Source of the DNA: an uncultured bacterium
Lineage (GTDB): Bacteria; UBP6; UBA1177; JAKLFG01
NCBI GenBank assembly: GCA_937871295.1
Contig: CALMRE010000243.1
Span: 1,027 to 65,026 of the forward strand
Length of the DNA: 64,000 nucleotides
Reading direction: 5' to 3'
The notes beneath the pieces were generated by a model, which saw only the letters and a list, made by a program, of their open reading frames with translations, did no database searches and was not told where the DNA came from. A program made the translations under genes and the position numbers. Below, one piece after another: positions 15,143 to 52,529 of the stretch. Numbering within the stretch: the first letter of the stretch is position 1; each line of letters opens with the position of its first letter.

Positions 15143-16435
15143 ATGAAACGCCCCCTCTGCGCATGCGTCTTGTTGTTCTGCGTGAGCGCCGCCGCCGCCG
15201 AACTCGTCGTCTGGCATCCCCACCGCGGCGCGGCCGCCACGGTGCTGGAAGAACTCGCGACGCAGTTCGCCAACCACGGCAACGGCCCGCCGGTACGGCT
15301 GGTCGCCCGGTCGCCCGAAGAGCTGACCGCGCTGTTCGATGACGCCGCCGCGCGCGGCGATCTGCCCGACGCGATCATCGCGAACCACGAACACACCGGA
15401 CGCTGGGTGACCGCGGGTCGGATACTGCCCCTGCCGCTCCCCTTCGCCGGACATATCGCCGAACTGACCTTTCCGTCCGCCGTCGAGGCATTGCGATACG
15501 ACGGGCGCTCGTGGGGCATACCGCTGACCGTGTCTACCGTTGTTCTGTTCCGCCGCACCGATATCGCGCCGCATGCGCCGGCCACCACCGGCGACCTGCT
15601 CGCCGCCGCCCGCGCGTGGGTCGGGAACGACGACGAACGATCCGGTCTCGCTTTCGACACCCGTTCGATCGGCGTGCTGCGGACACTGTTGAGCGGTTTC
15701 GGCGGCGGACTCTGCATGAGCGGACCGATCGTGACCGAACGCCCCTGCATAGAGAACGACGGGAACGGCGCGGCGCTTTCGTTCCTCGCCGGATTGGTGG
15801 ACGACCGCCTGCTCCCCGCCGCCGCCGACCGGCCCGCCCTGCTCCGCTGGTTCGCCGAAGGGCGGCTCCCCTTCGTGCTGGCCGACCAGTCGTTCGCCTC
15901 CCTGCTTCCCGCCGCCATCCCCTTTGCCGCCGCACCCCTTCCCGTCGTTTCGGAGAGCGGCCTGCCGATGCGGCCGTCGCTCAAGGTCGAAGCGCTCTAT
16001 CTGGTCAACGGACCGCGGGCCGACACCGCCGCCGCGATGCGCTTCGGCGAATTCCTCGCGGCGACCCGCGGCGCCCGTCTGCGCGCGGTCCGCGGCGGGC
16101 AGACGGTCGCCACCCTGCTCACCTACGACGAGGTCGAACTTCACGACGATCCCTTTTTCGCGCTGGTGCGCCAACAGGCCGATATCGCCGAACCATTGAG
16201 TAGCCGATCCGACATGCCGCTGCTGGCCGAACCGCTCCGCAACGCCGTGCGCGCCGTACTCCAGTACGGTCATCCGCCGCAGACGGCGCTTTCCGCCGCG
16301 ATCGCCGAATATGACGAAGCGCTCCACCCTCCCTCCCTCGAGCGTCGGATCGCCCTTTCGGCGCTGGTGTTGCTGTTACTGTTCCTTCCGGCGGTGCTCT
16401 TTTCGCGGATCGCACGGAACGCGCTTCACATTTAA
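15143..16435 (+). CDS. extracellular solute-binding protein (SBP_bac_1, MalE-like) with a C-terminal TM anchor
   Basis: Signal peptide. LVVWHP...DLPDAIIANHEHTGRW...YDGRSWGIPL matches the family-1 SBP pattern. The C-terminal IALSALVLLLLFLPAVLF is a hydrophobic helix. Confidence 0.5.
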   Translation: MKRPLCACVLLFCVSAAAAELVVWHPHRGAAATVLEELATQFANHGNGPPVRLVARSPEELTALFDDAAARGDLPDAIIANHEHTGRWVTAGRILPLPLPFAGHIAELTFPSAVEALRYDGRSWGIPLTVSTVVLFRRTDIAPHAPATTGDLLAAARAWVGNDDERSGLAFDTRSIGVLRTLLSGFGGGLCMSGPIVTERPCIENDGNGAALSFLAGLVDDRLLPAAADRPALLRWFAEGRLPFVLADQSFASLLPAAIPFAAAPLPVVSESGLPMRPSLKVEALYLVNGPRADTAAAMRFGEFLAATRGARLRAVRGGQTVATLLTYDEVELHDDPFFALVRQQADIAEPLSSRSDMPLLAEPLRNAVRAVLQYGHPPQTALSAAIAEYDEALHPPSLERRIALSALVLLLLFLPAVLFSRIARNALHI

Positions 16436-18011: not shown

Positions 18012-19487
18012 ATGCGAAAGATACTATTCCTGTCGTTCATCCTCGGCGCGCTGATGCTGTCGGCCGCCGAAAAAAACCTCTTCATCGTGACAACCGATAA
18101 GATAGTCGGCTCGTCGGCGAAACTCGCCGAGTTCATCGACGCGAAGGAGGCGCGCGGGTTCACCGTAACGCTCGCCACCGAGAGCGACTACGGCGCAAAA
18201 GACAAGCAGGGCTTCGATCGGGCCGGCGCGATCCGCGCATGGCTCACGGAGAACACCGCACCGGGCGACTATCTGCTCCTCATCGGCGACGCCAACGCGC
18301 AGTACGGCGATGTTCCGATGTTCATCGTCTGGCCGCGCCACACCTACTCGGCCGACCAGTGCTTCGGCTTCGCGGTCGACTGCCGCGCCTTCGAAAGCGA
18401 CGCCCCCTACGCCGACCTCTCGGGCGACTGGGACCTAAACCAGAACGGGCAGTGGGGCGAACACGGGCTCGACGATGGCGTTGGCGGCTTCGATCTCGAC
18501 TACGAACTCATCGTCGGCCGCCTGTCGGTCCATTTCGACGACACGGGCGAACTCGACCGCATCCTCGGTCACGCCCTCGACTACATGCGCGCCCCGCAGG
18601 GTTCCATCGCATGGCGCAAGAAGATACTGCTCCCCGCCTCGTTCTACTATTTCAAGGGTCAGCAGATGCTCTCCTACACGGTGCTTAACGATATGGACGG
18701 GGCCGACACGGCCGAATGGTTCATCTACAATATCCTGTCGCAGCACGGCGGGTTCGATGTCACCCGGATGTACGAGAAGGAGGGGACGACCGTCTCCAAA
18801 TATGCGACCGATGTACCGCTGACGCGCGACAACCTCCAGAGCGAATGGCCGAAGGGCTACGGGATGGTCTTCTGGTTCGGTCACGGGCTCGATAAGGAGG
18901 TGGCGCGGACCTTCTGGAACGACGACAACGAGGACGGCGAAGTGCAGAACGAGGAGTTGCGGCAGCCGCTCTTCATCCACTCCGACGATGCGCCCGCCAT
19001 CGGGGCGCAAAGCCCCGCCTTCGTCGTGGCGGTCTCGTGCGAGGTGGGCAGCGCCCAGACGCCGTGGAACCTGACCCACGCGCTCCTCACCGAGGGGTCC
19101 GCTATCGGGATGATCGGTTCGACCAATGTGACACCGGGCGACATGACCGACTACAGCGATTTCGAGAGCGAACTCGATACCTCGACCTACGGCGCGACCA
19201 ATCTGGGGGTCAATTTCTTCGATGAGTTGATGAACGGGGAGGTAGCGGCCAAGGTCTTCGCCGATGTGCGGCGGACCGTCGGGACCTCTCCCTCCATCGA
19301 GACCTACGCCGGGAAGATGATGCTCAACTACTACGGCGACCCGACCTTATCGCTTAACAGTTCCGCCGCCGACGCGCCGGATGAAGAAATCACCCCCGAC
19401 GAAGATACGGCCACCGACACCGAAACGCCCGACATCGATACCGCCGACAATTCATCCGACGGCGGATGTGCGCTAACATTGTTGTAG
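18012..19487 (+). CDS. peptidase family C25 (gingipain-like) cysteine protease
   Basis: Signal peptide. LLLIGD..., VFWFGHGL and VAVSCEVGSAQ resemble the C25 His/Cys dyad context. The C-terminus ends abruptly (...SSDGGCALTLL) and the stop codon lies inside the TIR of the adjacent palindromic element. Confidence 0.55.
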   Translation: MRKILFLSFILGALMLSAAEKNLFIVTTDKIVGSSAKLAEFIDAKEARGFTVTLATESDYGAKDKQGFDRAGAIRAWLTENTAPGDYLLLIGDANAQYGDVPMFIVWPRHTYSADQCFGFAVDCRAFESDAPYADLSGDWDLNQNGQWGEHGLDDGVGGFDLDYELIVGRLSVHFDDTGELDRILGHALDYMRAPQGSIAWRKKILLPASFYYFKGQQMLSYTVLNDMDGADTAEWFIYNILSQHGGFDVTRMYEKEGTTVSKYATDVPLTRDNLQSEWPKGYGMVFWFGHGLDKEVARTFWNDDNEDGEVQNEELRQPLFIHSDDAPAIGAQSPAFVVAVSCEVGSAQTPWNLTHALLTEGSAIGMIGSTNVTPGDMTDYSDFESELDTSTYGATNLGVNFFDELMNGEVAAKVFADVRRTVGTSPSIETYAGKMMLNYYGDPTLSLNSSAADAPDEEITPDEDTATDTETPDIDTADNSSDGGCALTLL

Positions 19488-19643
19488 GGGCGCGCCAACG
19501 GCACGCCCTGCGTTTTTCAAACACCCACCGACGCTTCGCGTCACCTCCCTGCGACAGGGAGGCACCACGCGGAAGGCCCCCTGATGCAGGGGGCTTGCGG
19601 GGGTGTAGAGTTTAGGGCGTCCCGATGGGAACGCCCCTACAAT
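19482..19643. repeat. 161-bp palindromic MITE/REP-like element
   Basis: An 11-bp perfect terminal inverted repeat, TTGTAGGGGCG at 19482-19492 and CGCCCCTACAA at 19632-19642, with 13 of 15 matching when extended. Two internal perfect hairpins lie at 19544-19562 and 19576-19594. A TTTTT run sits at 19513-19517. Confidence 0.45.
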
Positions 19644-19704
19644 ATTGAATTTCTCCCCTTCCCCGCTATAATCCACCCAACGACCGGACGAAAGGGAGGA
19701 TATC

Positions 19705-21129
19705 ATGAAGCGCGTTCTGGTACCGACGGTGTTTGCGTTACTGCTGATCGCGGGCTGTTCCAGCTCCGATTCTAACGCCACCGACGAAGAGATCGTGAAC
19801 GATACGGCGACTGCCGACGCTGACGCTTTTGATGATCCGACCGATCAGCCTGACCTGAGCGAAGTCGAAGGTTCCGACGACCTGACCGACGACACGCTCA
19901 TCGGGGAGGACGCCGACGAAATGCCCGACACCGACGAGCCGGAATTCCTGTCGGGGTTCGACACGACGGGAAAGACCTGCCTCACCGACATCCCGGAGGG
20001 GCGGATCATCCTCGCGACGGCGAAGGACTATACCGATAGCGAGGCGCCGTGGCGCGTCTATGTGCTGGTCCTGAAAGATGATGGGACGCTCATCGACACC
20101 GGGAGCTATTTCGATACCGACAAAACGCTCGAAGGGATCGGGTTCAACGCGAACGGCCGGCTCGCCGCCGTATCGTCGTGGGATACCGGGTTTGTGACCT
20201 TGTTCGCGCTCGTCGGCCGGACGCTCTGCATCGCCGAAACGGGGATCGTACTCCCCAACCTTGCCGAGAATGAGCGGGTGATCTTCGATCAGATAACAGC
20301 CGACCCCGCCGACCCCTACCGGTTCTATCTCACCTACGGCAACCCGATAACGACCGACCAGTACAGCAATTACTCCGGCGGCATCTACACCATGACGGTC
20401 GACGACACCGGACACGCGACCATCCTGACCGACCACCCGGCGATGCATGTCCCGACCGCCTTCACGCCTCTTCCGGGGGGCACACTGGCGGTCGCACTCG
20501 GCGGGAAAGAGTTCATCCTCGATGAGGGAAGCTCCCTCGGGACGGCGGGCCCCGACGATCTCGCGCTGCTCAGCATCTCAACGAATACGCCGGAGGTGCT
20601 CCAATGGTTCGATGTCTGGGGAACGCCGGGGGCGAACGGATCGGGTCCCTCGGTGAAAAATATCGGGGTCGACGGCGGCGGTAACCTGCTGATAGCGAAT
20701 TCGAGCGAATACGCGGAGGATACGGGGGTCATCAAACTGCTCTCCTATGACGGCGGGACCGGCACCATGACCACACAGGCCGAGTTCCTCGACGCGACGA
20801 ATCTCGATTCGCCCGACTATCTCGTCCTCAACAATGCGGGCGATACGGCGGTGGTGATGAACGGCTATTTCAAGGGGGCGACGCTCGGCATCACCGCCGA
20901 CGCGATCACCTATGTCAAGAAGGAGACGCACGATCTCACGCAGCCGATGATAAAGCTGCACGGGGCGCCGTTCGTGGATCATGTGCTTATCAGTTCGTTC
21001 CACAGTTCGAACGATGAGTCGGGGTCGATAACGATCGCCGAGATAACGGCGGAAGGGCTCGTCGAAGTGTCATCCACTCAGGTGCCGCTCAGCGACAGCT
21101 ACATGCTCGACAACCTGACGGTGCAATAA
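19705..21129 (+). CDS. lipoprotein with an acidic linker, hypothetical (possibly beta-propeller-like)
   Basis: SD AAGGGAGG, lipobox LLIAGC, and a D/E/T-rich N-terminal linker. Confidence 0.6.
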   Translation: MKRVLVPTVFALLLIAGCSSSDSNATDEEIVNDTATADADAFDDPTDQPDLSEVEGSDDLTDDTLIGEDADEMPDTDEPEFLSGFDTTGKTCLTDIPEGRIILATAKDYTDSEAPWRVYVLVLKDDGTLIDTGSYFDTDKTLEGIGFNANGRLAAVSSWDTGFVTLFALVGRTLCIAETGIVLPNLAENERVIFDQITADPADPYRFYLTYGNPITTDQYSNYSGGIYTMTVDDTGHATILTDHPAMHVPTAFTPLPGGTLAVALGGKEFILDEGSSLGTAGPDDLALLSISTNTPEVLQWFDVWGTPGANGSGPSVKNIGVDGGGNLLIANSSEYAEDTGVIKLLSYDGGTGTMTTQAEFLDATNLDSPDYLVLNNAGDTAVVMNGYFKGATLGITADAITYVKKETHDLTQPMIKLHGAPFVDHVLISSFHSSNDESGSITIAEITAEGLVEVSSTQVPLSDSYMLDNLTVQ

Positions 21130-21149
21130 GACCACAGAAATCCCGTCAA

Positions 21150-21169
21150 GCCCCCTTTGACAAGGGGGC
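21150..21169. other. GC-rich perfect hairpin (GCCCCCTT-tgac-AAGGGGGC) at the junction of the lipoprotein gene and the AT-rich segment
   Basis: 8-bp perfect inverted repeat with no following U-tract. It shares the CCCT..AGGG motif with the hairpins at 19544 and 19576. Confidence 0.4.
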
Positions 21170-21191
21170 GGAAGGAAAAATGCCTAGAAAA

Positions 21192-21488
21192 TTAAAAGAG
21201 AAAGCGACTTGCGAGATATATGGCCAAAACAGCCATCACTATATTGGCGACTAGAAAAGTCAACAAGCCCAAACGAAAAAACAAAGTCAGTTTAGAATTT
21301 CGTGAAAACACTCCCAGCGTCACGCATGCTACAACCACAATAAAAGTTTGAGCCGGTGCAGCAAACACAAGCAGGTAATGCATTTGGATATTAGCGATCC
21401 AGAAAGACAGCAGAATATAATCATAAATCAATAACAGGGGAACAACCAAATATGACCATACCCGCGGATCGGGGCGTAAAATACGCAT
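21192..21488 (-). CDS. small 3-TM membrane protein, hypothetical, in AT-rich DNA
   Basis: 98 aa starting at M33 of the track ORF (MRILRPDPRVWSYLVVPLLLIY...). The upstream part of the track ORF is the duplicated malQ tail read through. Confidence 0.4.
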   Translation of the reverse strand: MRILRPDPRVWSYLVVPLLLIYDYILLSFWIANIQMHYLLVFAAPAQTFIVVVACVTLGVFSRNSKLTLFFRLGLLTFLVANIVMAVLAIYLASRFLF

Positions 21489-21531
21489 GAGTTTCGAACG
21501 CTTTTCTTCGTCCACTATTTCACTCGCTGTG

Positions 21532-21612
21532 CTCATTCCGGTTGTAGAGCCACGAGAGTTCGGCGAGTCCCCACGCCGCCTCATCGCGAATATCGTCGTG
21601 CGTGAACCGGAA
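21532..21612. repeat. decayed duplicate of the malQ 3' coding end (direct repeat partner of 23275-23355)
   Basis: About 92% identity over the 81-bp core. Weaker similarity continues on both sides, roughly 21523-21630, and the differences in this copy are mostly G-to-A. Confidence 0.8.
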
Positions 21613-21659
21613 AATCCCGTTATATTGATGAGATACGGTCATTTTGCCCATGTGTTTCA

Positions 21660-21767
21660 TCAATTACCCATCAATTACCAAGATGTCGATGAACCTTATA
21701 AATATTAGCATGTTACCACTGTCCCTGCTGACCATGATCCTTGTTCTGTCAATTACCCATCAATTAC
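21660..21767. repeat. pair of 19-bp perfect direct repeats TCAATTACCCATCAATTAC (21660-21678 and 21749-21767), each with an internal CAATTAC duplication
   Basis: The second copy lies 4 nt downstream of the AlbA_2 gene stop. Confidence 0.7.
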
Positions 21768-21770
21768 TGC

Positions 21771-23237
21771 TCAAGCCCAGAATGGAACATACTTCATAAG
21801 TTTCCTCGCCGCATCTCCATCGAAGGGTCTGATCATACCAGCATCTACCGCCTCGCGAATGTAGCGAGAGATAATAGCCTTGTTCTTTTCTTCCACTCCC
21901 AACCGTTCACGCAATGAGGCGTTGGTTAAGTAATCGCGCATGACCCACTTCAAGCAAGCGTGCAAATAACAAGCCCTTATGCGATCCTCTTTGTCCATGC
22001 GGTTCAACGGCTTGTGCGCAAACAGCACCACTCTGGTGAAATCACCCGAAACATCAGTCAACGGAGCGGGCAGTTGGTAGAGTTCTGTCTGAAAAACCAC
22101 CTTGTCCCAACCACTGCCACGCTCTTCACAGATACCGATACGCCGCATCAGCGAAGCAAGCGATTCGTTTCGCGACTTCGGCGGGGTGTCGACAAAACGC
22201 TGCGCATCCACCAATGGCACCCCCGGATTGGTTATCTCGATACGATCGGAAAAGATTTCGACCATCGGCCCGGCGCCGGTAACAAAGTAGTCTTGATGAA
22301 TAAGGGCATTCGCCACCAACTCGCGGACCGCCAGTTGGGGAAACATCGGAACGGTCTTTCGTAACGCCTGTCCAATCACCTCATTAGAGGGCACCAATCC
22401 ATTGACGAAACCGATCAATCCCTCGAATCCGCAGGCATATCCCTTGCCACCGACCTGTTCTTTGACCGTCTCGACACGGCTTGCGCCTTTATACTGGATG
22501 ACCCGCATCGCTTTGCGCTGAAGTGAGTGAAAATCTTTCAGTTGCTTGGCAAAAAGGATGGCACCCATATTCGTAATGTTCCAACCGCCCGCATCGCAGG
22601 GGCAGATCAATCGGTCCTCAGCCAACGCTTTCAGAATACCGGCACGACCTTCCGGCAACGGTCGCTTGAGCAAATCAAAGTAGGATGGATAGTCAAGCGT
22701 CCGAAGGACATCATCATCGTGCATTCGCTCTGCGGCAATTCCGTCCTCAAATGGAGTGCGATCAAATATACGCCACAACTCCCGTTCCTTTTCCGAGAAG
22801 TCTTTGAGCCGCTTCTTATAAGAACCCACACGGATGTATTCATTGTTCTGGAATTGAACCGGGTGTCTGAATGCTCTGCCGATCTCCAATAATACGGTAT
22901 GCTTTCCCTCCATGTCGATCTCATGGAAACGGAAGGTTATCTTCGGCGTAAGAAGCTTCAGAAGCCAGTTCTCTAACTCTTCGTTACCGACCTTCGTTTT
23001 TGAGGGAAAGAATGTTGTTCCCACGACCTCATGCGTGGAATCGACAACTCCCCACAGCAAATATGCGTTGGCTTTGCCACACAATGCGGCGGAATTAGAA
23101 AGGGCCGAAATATATTCTCCCAGTTCTTGTGGTTCGGCATAATTCATCTTAAATTCTACCCATTCAATCTCTTTGGGCAGTTTGAGAAGTTCGCCGAGCA
23201 AACTTATTAAATATTCTTGCCCCCGATCACTCGGCAT
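21771..23237 (-). CDS. AlbA_2 (Schlafen-like divergent AAA) + HATPase_c_4 domain protein, of the kind often annotated as a putative transcriptional regulator or RecG-related ATP-binding protein
   Basis: Started at M64 of the track ORF (MPSDRGQEYLIS...), the ATG at 23235-23237. EIEWVEFKMNYAEP...AALCGKANAYLLWGVVDSTHEVVG matches the AlbA_2 pattern. RELVANALIHQDYFVTGAGPMVEIFSDRIEITNPG matches HATPase_c_4. The gene lies in AT-rich DNA. Confidence 0.7.
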   Translation of the reverse strand: MPSDRGQEYLISLLGELLKLPKEIEWVEFKMNYAEPQELGEYISALSNSAALCGKANAYLLWGVVDSTHEVVGTTFFPSKTKVGNEELENWLLKLLTPKITFRFHEIDMEGKHTVLLEIGRAFRHPVQFQNNEYIRVGSYKKRLKDFSEKERELWRIFDRTPFEDGIAAERMHDDDVLRTLDYPSYFDLLKRPLPEGRAGILKALAEDRLICPCDAGGWNITNMGAILFAKQLKDFHSLQRKAMRVIQYKGASRVETVKEQVGGKGYACGFEGLIGFVNGLVPSNEVIGQALRKTVPMFPQLAVRELVANALIHQDYFVTGAGPMVEIFSDRIEITNPGVPLVDAQRFVDTPPKSRNESLASLMRRIGICEERGSGWDKVVFQTELYQLPAPLTDVSGDFTRVVLFAHKPLNRMDKEDRIRACYLHACLKWVMRDYLTNASLRERLGVEEKNKAIISRYIREAVDAGMIRPFDGDAARKLMKYVPFWA

Positions 23238-23262
23238 TCTTGCCCTCCCCCTACAATGAATC

Positions 23263-24768
23263 CTATTTCTCGTCGTGCTCGTTCCGGTTGTAGAGCCACG
23301 AGAGTTCGGCGAGTCCCCACGCCGCTTCGTCGCGGATGTCATCGTGCGTGAACCGGAAGGTCCAGTTGTGGAGCCCCATCGTCCCCGGCGTATTGAACCG
23401 CGCCTCAGACCCCATCCCCAGCACATCCTGCATCGGCATCACCGCGTACTGCGCCACACTCCCGTAGGCAAGCCGGATGAGCGCCCAAGCGGGGCTATCG
23501 CCCCACCGCAGGCCGAGATAACGGTTTATCTCCCGACGGTCGTGCTCGTAGATGGAGCGATACCACCCCATCACCGTGTCGTTGTCATGCGTCCCGGTGT
23601 AGACGGCGCAGTTGGTGGTCGTGTAGTTGTGCGGCAAAAAGGCATTTTCGGGCGCGTCGAATCCGAATTGGAGCACCTTCATTCCGGGGAAACCGAAGTG
23701 CTCGCGCAGTTCGACCACATCCTCCGATATGACGCCGAGATCCTCGGCGATGACCGGCAGTTCGCCGAAATGTGTTTTAAGCGCGTCGAAGAGTTTCTTG
23801 CCGGGGCTCTTTTTCCATTTCCCGTTCACCGCCGTTTCATCGCACGCGGGCACCGCCCAGCACGCCGCGAAGCCGCGGAAGTGATCGATGCGGACGATGT
23901 CGAAGAGTTTGAACGACTGCGCGAAGCGCCTCTTCCACCAGTCGAAACCGTCCTCCTCCATCCGCTTCCAGTCGTAGAGCGGGTTGCCCCACAACTGGCC
24001 GGTCGGCGAGAAGTAGTCGGGCGGCACCCCCGCGAGGAAGGTCCGCTTGCCGTTCTTGAGGAGAAAATAGTCCTGATGGGCCCAGACATCCACGCTGTCG
24101 AACGAAACGAATATCGGGATGTCGCCCACGATGCGGATGCCGCGTTCGTTGGCGTATCTCTTGAGCGCCCCCCACTGCCGGTGGAAGAGCCACTGGATGA
24201 ACTGGTGGCGCAGGATATCGTCGGCCGATTCCTGCATGAAGCGGGCGAGCGACGCCGGACGCCGCTCCCGGAACTCTATCGGCCACTCGTGCCAGCAGGT
24301 GGTGCCGAACTTCTCGCGGAGCGCCGCGTAGAGCGCGTAGTCGCCGAGCCAGTGGCTGTTGTCGGTGCGGAACTTCGCCATCTCGTCGAACCGGTCGCGC
24401 GTTTTCTGAAAAGTCGCGAAAGCGGCCCGCAGCAACGCATCGGAGAGATCGCGCGCACTATCGAAGTTGACCCGGCGCGGATCGGGCGCCGGGACCTTGA
24501 AGGGTGATGCGTCGGCGATAAGTCCCTCTTCCGCGAGGGTGTCGGCGTCTATCAGCCACGGGTTCCCGGCGAAGGCCGAATGTGAATTGTAGGGACAGCC
24601 GTCGTAGGAGGTGGGGGTGAGCGGCAGTATCTGCCAGAGCGTCTGCTTGCCGGTGGCCAACCAGTCGACGAACCGGCGCGCCGCATCGCCGAAGGTGCCG
24701 ATGGGGCCGGGGCCGGGCAGGGCCGCGGGGTGAAGAATGATGCCGCTGGAACGATGAAGAGTGGTCAT
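23263..24768 (-). CDS. malQ: 4-alpha-glucanotransferase (amylomaltase, GH77)
   Basis: 501 aa. GIILHPAALPG...QILPLTPT...NPLYDW is typical of MalQ. Confidence 0.9.
   Translation of the reverse strand: MTTLHRSSGIILHPAALPGPGPIGTFGDAARRFVDWLATGKQTLWQILPLTPTSYDGCPYNSHSAFAGNPWLIDADTLAEEGLIADASPFKVPAPDPRRVNFDSARDLSDALLRAAFATFQKTRDRFDEMAKFRTDNSHWLGDYALYAALREKFGTTCWHEWPIEFRERRPASLARFMQESADDILRHQFIQWLFHRQWGALKRYANERGIRIVGDIPIFVSFDSVDVWAHQDYFLLKNGKRTFLAGVPPDYFSPTGQLWGNPLYDWKRMEEDGFDWWKRRFAQSFKLFDIVRIDHFRGFAACWAVPACDETAVNGKWKKSPGKKLFDALKTHFGELPVIAEDLGVISEDVVELREHFGFPGMKVLQFGFDAPENAFLPHNYTTTNCAVYTGTHDNDTVMGWYRSIYEHDRREINRYLGLRWGDSPAWALIRLAYGSVAQYAVMPMQDVLGMGSEARFNTPGTMGLHNWTFRFTHDDIRDEAAWGLAELSWLYNRNEHDEK
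23275..23355. repeat. native malQ 3' end, the direct-repeat partner of 21532-21612
   Basis: Contiguous with the malQ body; see the repeat at 21532. Confidence 0.8.
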
Positions 24769-24924
24769 AATTCTACTCCATAAAGAGATCGTTGCCGTGA
24801 CTTTCCAACCTCACCCCGACCCTCTCCATCGTGTGGAGAGGGAGTATGCGGTCGCCTTTTTTTCCTTCTCCGCACGACGGAGAAGGTGGCCGCAGGCCGG
24901 ATGAGGTTGAAGGGAAAAAGGCGT

Positions 24925-52042: not shown

Positions 52043-52119
52043 CGGGGTGTAGCTCAGCTGGCTAGAGTGCTTGCTTTGGGAGCAAGTGGCCGGAGGTTCA
52101 AGTCCTCTCACCCCGACCA
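52043..52119 (+). tRNA. tRNA-Pro (anticodon TGG)
   Basis: Cloverleaf with acceptor CGGGGTG/CACCCCG, anticodon loop TTTGGGA, and an encoded CCA. Confidence 0.85.
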
Positions 52120-52122
52120 GCT

Positions 52123-52199
52123 GTGCCCGTAGCTCAGTTGGATAGAGCAACTGACTTCTAATCAGTAGGCCAGAGGTTCGATTCCTCTCGGGCACGCCA
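52123..52199 (+). tRNA. tRNA-Arg (anticodon TCT)
   Basis: Acceptor GTGCCCG/CGGGCAC, anticodon loop CTTCTAA, and an encoded CCA. Confidence 0.85.
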
Positions 52200-52224
52200 G
52201 GTTGTTTTTTCACATTGCGAGTAT

Positions 52225-52300
52225 GGTGGGTGTAGTTCAATGGTAGAGCACCGGATTGTGATTCCGGGCGTTGTGGGTTCGAGTCCCATTACCCACCCCA
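52225..52300 (+). tRNA. tRNA-His (anticodon GTG)
   Basis: Extra G at -1, anticodon loop TTGTGAT, discriminator C, and an encoded CCA. Confidence 0.85.
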
Positions 52301-52308
52301 TTTTTGGT

Positions 52309-52384
52309 GGGCCCTTAGCTCAGTTGGTAGAGCAACTGACTCTTAATCAGTGGGTCGAAGGTTCGAATCCTTCAGGGCCTACCA
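52309..52384 (+). tRNA. tRNA-Lys (anticodon CTT)
   Basis: Acceptor GGGCCCT/AGGGCCT, anticodon loop CTCTTAA, and an encoded CCA. Confidence 0.85.
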
Positions 52385-52444
52385 TCCATATTTCAAGCGT
52401 ACATTCCCCATCGATAGATACCGAACGGCAAAAATTCGGTCGTT

Positions 52445-52529
52445 GCGAGAGTGGCGGAATTGGCAGACGCACTGGACTTAGGATCCAGCGGGTAACACCT
52501 TGGGGGTTCGACTCCCCCCCCTCGCACCA
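52445..52529 (+). tRNA. tRNA-Leu (anticodon TAG), class II with a long variable arm
   Basis: GCGAGAGTGGCGGAATTGGCAGACGC 5' end, anticodon loop CTTAGGA, a long extra arm, and an encoded CCA. Confidence 0.85.

Follow-up and report, generated by a model that had tools for sequence, protein, structure and literature searches.

Introduction

The closest described relatives of the repeat analyzed here are the GTAG REP families, the BIMEs of E. coli and the REPINs of Pseudomonas. As set out in the survey by Di Nocera et al. (2013, PMC3733652), head-to-head REP dimers carry their GTAG tags on the outside, and heterodimers join partners that differ in stems or loops. Their spacers are mostly 20-100 bp long and sometimes form stem-loops of their own, and DNA can insert between the partners; the same survey describes the TAG of a GTAG tag serving as the stop codon of a gene. 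In E. coli, BIMEs consist of alternating Y and Z REPs with extra-REP motifs, and REPtrons have been described (Ton-Hoang 2012, PMC3333891; Corneloup 2021, PMC8266576). Cleavage by TnpA_REP requires GTAG together with a hairpin on single-stranded DNA (PMC8266576). In the REPINs of Pseudomonas, two REPs of inverted orientation are able to form a single long hairpin; REPINs are presumably non-autonomous and rely on RAYTs for their movement (Bertels & Rainey 2011, PMC3116915). REPs also serve as insertion targets for other mobile elements (Tobes & Pareja 2006, PMC1525189).

Here we analyze a repeat from an uncultured bacterium, in a stretch of 64,000 nucleotides that we call the window. Very probably, positions 19477-19647 of the window hold a mosaic, non-coding repeat that belongs with the REPs, BIMEs and REPINs: a head-to-head GTAG heterodimer with a nested 86-nt module, spread by a RAYT, that ends the gene of a peptidase. 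Like the GTAG REPs of that survey (PMC3733652), its units are GC-rich imperfect palindromes of 25-26 nt with an unpaired GTAG tag. They occur solo or paired with the tags outside, and the paired partners are unlike in both stem and loop; the spacers vary and sometimes hold stem-loops or inserts, the copies are mostly extragenic, and TAG is used as a stop. In contrast, neither the unit, GTAGGGGCG-N10/11-ACGCCC, nor the host matches any of the 24 families in the text of that survey, figures aside, and the 106-nt spacer of the window exceeds the usual 20-100 bp given there.

As in the BIMEs and REPtrons of E. coli, two REP types stand opposed with conserved motifs between them, and the units have the GTAG-plus-hairpin anatomy of the substrate; however, there is no sequence similarity, and the inter-REP motif of the window is an 86-nt multi-hairpin module that is also found free-standing. 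The two inverted REPs foldable into one long hairpin, and the presumed non-autonomous, RAYT-driven movement, are shared with REPINs. The REPIN spacer is short and fairly constant and the doublet replicates, whereas in our case spacer length varies between 7 and 131 nt and recombination of the parts is free. The presence of a foreign repeat inside a REP cluster recalls the cases collected in PMC1525189, although the insert here is an 86-nt non-coding module and not an insertion sequence.

Results

Architecture of the element

An earlier note on this DNA had described 11-bp inverted termini, and these are present in the window sequence as TTGTAGGGGCG (19482-19492) and, at 19632-19642, the complementary sequence. 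With 88% complementarity, the arms lengthen to 16 nt (inverted repeat I1, 19477-19492 and 19632-19647). Each terminus contains a REP unit. Unit A, GTAGGGGCGCGCCAACGGCACGCCC, occupies 19484-19508 on the plus strand and has copies in other genomes; unit B, GTAGGGGCGTTCCCATCGGGACGCCC, occupies 19615-19640 on the minus strand, and elsewhere it is found both in further copies and paired head to head with unit A. Both unit A, of 25 nt, and unit B, of 26 nt, form a GC-rich stem of 8 of 9 bp with a 3-4-nt loop, which places both among the short (20-40 nt), imperfect, GC-rich palindromes typical of GTAG REPs, and both open with GTAG at the 5' foot of the hairpin. A 5' extension precedes each tag. That of unit A, CATTGTT (19477-19483, plus strand), lies within the left arm of the repeat and codes for the last residues of the peptidase (..aCA TTG TTG); that of unit B reads CAATATT on the minus strand (19641-19647) and belongs to the right arm.

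From unit A to unit B, the interval comprises a 12-nt linker, the 86-nt core and an 8-nt linker. The first linker, TGCGTTTTTCAA (19509-19520, plus strand), holds a run of five T residues and is unconserved among copies. The core (19521-19606, plus strand), which recurs independently of the units, is closed by the stem ACACCCACCG/CGGGGGTGT; its ends read ACACCCNCCG...CGGGGGTGT. Within it, on the same strand, are a small hairpin, GACGC-TTC-GCGTC (19530-19542), and the two perfect 8-bp hairpins that had been pointed out before, CCTCCCTG-CGA-CAGGGAGG at 19544-19562 and GCCCCCTG-ATG-CAGGGGGC at 19576-19594. The second linker, AGAGTTTA (19607-19614, plus strand), reads ..TTTA in the window; in the A/B pairs of relatives, the bases immediately before GGGCGT on the B side are mostly ..TTCA (L184, L209, L213, L220 and L229), with ..CC in L160, L162 and L169.

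Taken as the sole criterion, the 11-bp termini are at chance level, because five perfect inverted repeats of at least 11 bp within 200 nt were observed in the window versus 5.2 +/- 2.3 expected from dinucleotide-preserving shuffles of it. Folding of the RNA of 19470-19655, a check that the earlier note had proposed, gave a minimum free energy of -103.2 kcal/mol (z = -8.1), with 0 of 200 shuffles as low; the corresponding DNA fold had a z of -6.9. Units A and B form the outer stem of the minimum-free-energy fold, so that the whole is a long hairpin of the REPIN type. We regard the element as real because its complementarity is nested and because its parts recur in other genomes.

Dispersed copies in related genomes

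The search for further copies, also proposed beforehand, had a divided outcome: within the 64-kb window the element is alone, with no further copy of its termini, units or core, whereas exact units are present in related MAGs. One genome per species (596 Gb) was scanned with the pattern GTAGGGGCGYNCCN{2,4}CGGNACGCCC, which specifies ~20.5 bases. At least 111 stretches matched, against ~1-2 expected by chance according to our own arithmetic. The listed matches cluster in a few MAGs, including RA.bin151 (the genome of the 83% relative discussed below), RA.bin96, USDE_metabat.136 and a 'Spirochaetales' bin; several Chloroflexota MAGs, with stem variants of their own, are also among them. RA.bin96 carries at least 17 units in 12 blocks, and at least four contigs of RA.bin151 carry units. 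Exact copies among the matches listed number at least 15 for unit A and at least three for unit B, which is accompanied by the close variants TTCCCACCGGG and TTCCCAACGGG. A looser, general unit pattern proved too permissive, its listed matches falling in viral contigs and including many unrelated stem variants.

The copies are mainly intergenic, and the few that appeared to lie inside ORFs are at the ends of crude ORF predictions. The description 'REP-like' in the earlier note was thus apt: each terminus consists of an imperfect palindrome with a GTAG tag, and this palindrome is dispersed and mainly extragenic in the relatives, the source genome itself being seen as the window only, with one element in its 64 kb. 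Across four related MAGs, units stand alone or as inverted A/B pairs with their GTAG tags outward. Solo copies of unit A were found at L001/L142, L145, L203, L188, L193, L210 and L214; in the 83% relative, an exact 26-nt copy occupies a non-homologous intergenic site between a GH77 gene and a nucleoside transporter. Units A and B face each other head to head at L213, L229, L160, L169, L220 and L209.

Among the matches listed, nine inverted pairs of the A/B type measure 58-157 nt overall, with spans that include 58, 77, 78, 80, 80, 114, 115 and 157 nt. Their spacers cover 7-131 nt (e.g., 7, 26, 27, 29, 63, 65, 106 and 107 nt) and differ in content. The doublet with a short conserved spacer that defines a REPIN is therefore not the arrangement found here, as spacers vary and units commonly stand alone. 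The related MAGs also contain a third type of unit, GTAGGGGCGC(A/G)ATT(C/T)AT(T/C)GCGCCC, and the A, B and C types co-occur with the recurring core and with a second recurring spacer hairpin module, a composition that corresponds to the mosaic of a BIME.

The bases ahead of the tag allowed us to place the start of the unit. Over 33 units of the lineage, the 5' flank showed C at -7 (26/33), T at -2 (19/33) and T at -1 (23/33). GTAG is present in all 33 by construction, since the pattern required it, whereas the pattern left the 5' flank bases free. The conserved flank therefore indicates that the unit starts ~7 nt before GTAG, and the extensions at both ends of the window element fit this consensus.

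Association with RAYT genes

Homologs of HUH/Y1 transposases (Pfam Y1_Tnp) were present in four of the at least 111 blocks listed. RAYT genes bracketed by units of the GTAGGGGCG...CGCCC class were found at L222, L144 and L224, and the flanking unit at L224, GTAGGGGCGTCCCATCGGGACGCCC, is one base off unit B. The RAYTs with flanking units of the same class come from MAGs of Anaerolineae, Aminicenantes and Acidobacteria. The family to which these proteins belong counts at least 7,994 members at E <= 1e-15, and 'REP element-mobilizing transposase RayT' is the name given to many of them. Searches by regular expression, phmmer and profile recovered no RAYT of the window's lineage from the window or from ~340 kb of lineage sequence; a RAYT labeled '[bacterium]' (P0148) sits in a type I restriction-modification locus and is not evidently from the window's lineage. 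Because the RAYTs of these blocks all lie outside this lineage, the association applies to the class of units and not to a RAYT of the lineage's own.

The 86-nt core as a separate module

A 157-nt pair in RA.bin96 (L184) carries the core in the opposite orientation. Its interior is the reverse complement of the window interior (88/106 positions identical) and keeps both perfect hairpins, and an A-type and a B-type unit still flank it; aligned in reverse orientation, the full 157 nt match the window element at 83%. A scan of metagenomes for the two core hairpins gave 11 matches in 9 stretches. The core occurs without REP units directly after the TAA stop of a gene (L244), between convergent genes at 0-3 nt from their stops (L245 and L248) and inside paralogous ~760-nt tandem repeats of small lipoprotein genes (L241/L243/L249); at L247 it lies alongside other REP types.

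A covariance model built from seven copies recovered one divergent core, at 63 bits, in L210, where a solo unit A adjoins it and the two follow each other as they do in the window. The stems of this copy are kept by changes: GTCC-TCC-GGAC stands in for GACGC-TTC-GCGTC, a C-G pair is swapped to G-C, and there is a G.T wobble. The consensus of the core is modeled as a four-way junction with conserved loops, and two copies bear an optional extra hairpin. Over 674 kb of REP-bearing loci of other phyla, the core model did not find the core, returning one marginal 20.5-bit match, and BLAST gave no plasmid match to the element.

The genes around the core are arranged in tandem, convergently or divergently, and the downstream genes are mutually unrelated. 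We rejected a gene-linked 5' leader on the grounds that the downstream proteins have nothing in common. The three cores of L249, ~760 nt apart, were considered as integron attC sites and rejected as such: they arose as paralogous duplications, nearly identical and extending over the flanks and the small lipoprotein genes, and they are without consistent RYYYAAC/GTTRRRY ends.

The end of the peptidase gene

The ORF at 18012-19487 matches Pfam Peptidase_C25 at 2.8e-28. An exact-protein look-up of this peptidase found no record, and ~45 homologs were recovered. The earlier note had placed its stop codon within the left terminus, and the ORF list agrees: the TAG at 19485-19487 (plus strand) is donated by the GTAG tag of unit A. 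Compared in sequence with its close orthologs (89%, 83% and 82% identity), the peptidase is not truncated, since they are equal to it in length, at 491-492 aa. The tail of these orthologs reads ..GGC[A/S]L[V/T][T/L]L, and that of the wider family ..SSGC[SA]xxx[ILF]. The idea that the element had cut off a C-terminal sorting signal was rejected, as all orthologs share the short ..GC[SA]xxx[ILF] tail and the same length; a long tail, weakly MYXO-CTERM-like (16.9 bits vs a cutoff of 20), is seen only in distant homologs.

The element is absent after the peptidase in both the 89% relative (L009) and the 83% relative (L001-L008). In L009 the peptidase stop adjoins the stop of a convergent GH77 gene, and in L001-L008 a convergent gene of 555 aa lies 40 nt past the peptidase. 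Nucleotide homology between the window and L009 stops at 19475 and restarts at 21536; the DNA that separates the peptidase from the GH77 gene is a variable island, and the element lies at its edge. Of the two observations that would refute its interpretation, the earlier note had named an identical, conserved C-terminus in relatives without the inverted repeat, and a C-terminus of identical length is indeed kept in the relatives that have no element; the other was a lack of further copies, and because other copies exist, the reading as a repeat stands.

The last three codons and the stop are aca ttg ttg TAG in the window, gtt acc tta TAA in L009 and gta act ctt TAA in L001. Over these three codons the window and L009 agree at 2 of 9 positions, compared with ~86% upstream. 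The three codons look replaced because the unit begins ~7 nt ahead of GTAG, and they are most likely derived from the element. Three further genes in relatives stop on the TAG of a unit, each as TCG TAG GGGCG; they encode a TPM-domain protein (L209), a radical-SAM protein (L214) and RibF (L229), and are real genes by Pfam.

Genomic setting

The window is ordinary chromosome, with tig, clpX, lon, rho and ligA, and Rho is thus encoded within it. Relatives of its LigA from named taxa reach at most 47% identity. The relatives used here come from metagenome assemblies, one of which is titled activated sludge.

Discussion

Several features of the element would suit a functional structured RNA, with the core or the whole element kept by selection as a 3'-UTR stabilizer, an sRNA or a cis-regulator. 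The element folds strongly, the core has a four-way-junction consensus with conserved loops, and the divergent L210 copy holds its stems by compensatory and wobble changes; the optional extra hairpin of two copies, and the sense orientation of the core to neighboring genes in 3/3 informative unidirectional contexts, point the same way. We nevertheless consider such an RNA improbable. No gene is a constant neighbor, since convergent, divergent and tandem contexts all occur and the proteins encoded downstream are unrelated; the core flips its orientation relative to the flanking units and is missing from the orthologous position in the two closest relatives. Informative covariation is almost nil, because most copies of the core are nearly identical. 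A structured small RNA had been suggested in the earlier note, and Rfam lent this no support: only tRNAs passed in the window, the best local match reached 16 bits against a 45-bit threshold, and permissive thresholds were also negative. The same note had offered a MITE; a classical MITE would be a single, non-autonomous unit of ~160 bp, bounded by terminal inverted repeats and moved by a DDE transposase. Inverted termini of 11-16 bp, the small size and the alignment of L184 over its whole 157 nt at 83%, albeit reversed, are what a MITE would display, but this origin is very unlikely. Neither flanking direct repeats nor a target-site duplication was found in the nine pairs, and their lengths are uneven (58-157 nt). 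The termini also occur solo or paired across spacers of 7-131 nt, and the interior exists without them and in either orientation. Moreover, the termini have the GTAG-plus-hairpin anatomy, and their class is tied to RAYT genes.

The position of the element, directly after a stop codon, would also suit a module for intrinsic termination of the peptidase operon. As the earlier note had pointed out, the GC stem, which is the hairpin of unit A, has TTTTT behind it, and the next gene has a promoter-like site of its own (TTGAAT-16-TATAAT, 19645-19672) and a ribosome-binding site. A canonical terminator it is not, however: a scan of 19300-19850 called none, the T run starts 4 nt past the stem and is unconserved in other copies, and relatives end the same operon without the element. 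We give this module very little credence, and no more to a palindrome that arose by chance, which is excluded by a z of -8 and by recurrence. Units are seen solo, in A/B pairs over a short spacer or together with a core, and cores are seen by themselves and in either orientation, which shows that the parts recur and combine variously; therefore, the element is best described as a mosaic heterodimer, rather than as a unitary MITE, an Rfam RNA or a canonical terminator.

Within this mosaic heterodimer, the core may have an identity of its own. Our tentative suggestion, which we think somewhat doubtful, is that it represents either an undescribed family of non-autonomous mobile elements, with its own mobilizing enzyme and a preference for gene ends, 0-3 nt from the stops of convergent genes, and for the inside of REP pairs, or a new structured RNA motif confined to this lineage. 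We retain it because the core is independent of the REP units, has a four-way fold with compensatory change and is without a match in Rfam or among annotated plasmids.

The following course of events would account for the locus. A RAYT acting on the single-stranded hairpin and its GTAG tag would have spread the units. The core would then either have inserted into the spacer between A and B or have been turned around when the inverted units recombined with each other. Unit A would have landed on the extreme end of the C25 peptidase gene, its CATTGTT-GTAG replacing approximately the last three codons and the TAA stop. As unit A supplied codons and a stop of its own, the protein stays at 491 aa, ending in ..TLL rather than ..VTL.

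Transcription of the peptidase gene would probably place the element at the 3' end of the mRNA, where it would fold at ~-100 kcal/mol. By the precedent of REP biology in E. coli and Pseudomonas, the folded element would be expected to block 3' exonucleases and so stabilize the upstream mRNA, and to attenuate read-through to the next gene. By analogy, the hairpin may also hinder translation termination, because it begins at the stop codon; work by Liang, Rudd and Deutscher in 2015 reportedly concerned REPs near stop codons and trans-translation.

A REP pair that donates the stop of a gene is of an already known kind, and our understanding of how REPs work is unchanged by this finding; the nested core is the least understood part. 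For annotation, recognizing the element averts false small ORFs, false sRNA calls and false calls of a 'truncated gene', and with its parts as markers, strains can be typed and rearrangements traced. The locus is a clean natural case in which a REP swaps the last codons and the stop of a gene while the length of the protein is unchanged. More broadly, an uncultured lineage of digesters and activated sludge has a REP/BIME-type system, with at least three types of unit and two further hairpin modules.

The variable island downstream of the C25 peptidase

The interval between the C25 peptidase and GH77 genes (window 19488-23276) is a variable island, in which the GC content of the window falls to 0.54. 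In addition to the REP element and a 130-aa ORF, the window carries here a 474-aa lipoprotein gene without a Pfam match (19705-21129), a 91-nt duplicate fragment of the GH77 3' end (21531-21621) and, on the minus strand, a 551-aa gene with SLFN_AlbA_2 and HATPase_c_4 domains (21771-23426). The 89% peptidase relative L009 has nothing at this place, and the 83% relative L001 has genes of 555 and 146 aa. Elsewhere in the window, five tRNA genes are clustered (52043-52526) immediately upstream of tig-clpX-lon-rho.

At the upstream border of the island, the peptidase family (window 19440-19487; homologs P0002-P0045) has a C-terminus made up of a conserved acidic linker and then a very short tail, ..S(S/G)GC[SA]xxx[ILF]-COOH. 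The remoter homologs P0006, P0014, P0021, P0026, P0029 and P0036 end in GC, a transmembrane helix and a basic tail; P0036 matched MYXO-CTERM below threshold. The short tail is possibly a sorting signal in minimal or processed form.

Further repeat modules

Just past the stop codon of the 474-aa lipoprotein gene lies a hairpin module, AAATCCCGTCAAGCCCCCTTTGACAAGGGGGCGGAAGGA (window 21139-21176), that matches a REP-pair spacer in the related MAG RA.bin96 (L209 3563-3625). The stems of the two differ by compensatory changes, GCCCCC/GGGGGC versus GGTCCC/GGGACC. The hairpin is a further dispersed module of the same mosaic REP system, and the 474-aa gene thus has repeat modules at both ends.

Two more hairpins, CCCTCTCCA-TCGTG-TGGAGAGGG and CCTTCTCCG-CACGA-CGGAGAAGG, occupy window 24808-24887, between the GH77 start and a nucleoside transporter. 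Their 77.5% match to a separate contig of the related MAG RA.bin151 (L203 3121-3186) indicates a third dispersed repeat family. Instead of the hairpins, L001 has a solo REP unit A at the orthologous position (15293-15318).

Repeat units in other genomes and contigs

In an activated-sludge contig (L249 10733-12353), the core module occurs three times with a period of ~760 nt, each copy flanked by versions of a 71-77-aa lipoprotein gene (MKRTAYLLTILILLTACTGC..) that are nearly identical to one another; tandem cores were also found in L241 and L243. The block of lipoprotein gene and core has been amplified in tandem as a whole.

REP units were also seen inside stop-free reading frames of the RAYT transposase genes themselves, in Anaerolineae, Acidobacteria and Aminicenantes MAGs (L189 3608-4282; L222 3907-4554; L144 4910-5770). 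There the insertions contribute peptide stretches, such as ..VGAGFKPAH.. and ..GVGAGLKPAPT...

A looser unit pattern, GTAGGGGCG-N8-14-ACGCCC, was scanned in the IMG/VR viral_contigs. Among the matches listed, which include loci L010-L129, the most frequent variants were GTAGGGGCGTATTGCATACGCCC (at least 10 times) and GTAGGGGCGTACTTCAGACGCCC (at least 6 times). Judged from these pattern matches, REP-like units of this class appear to be common in contigs classed as viral.
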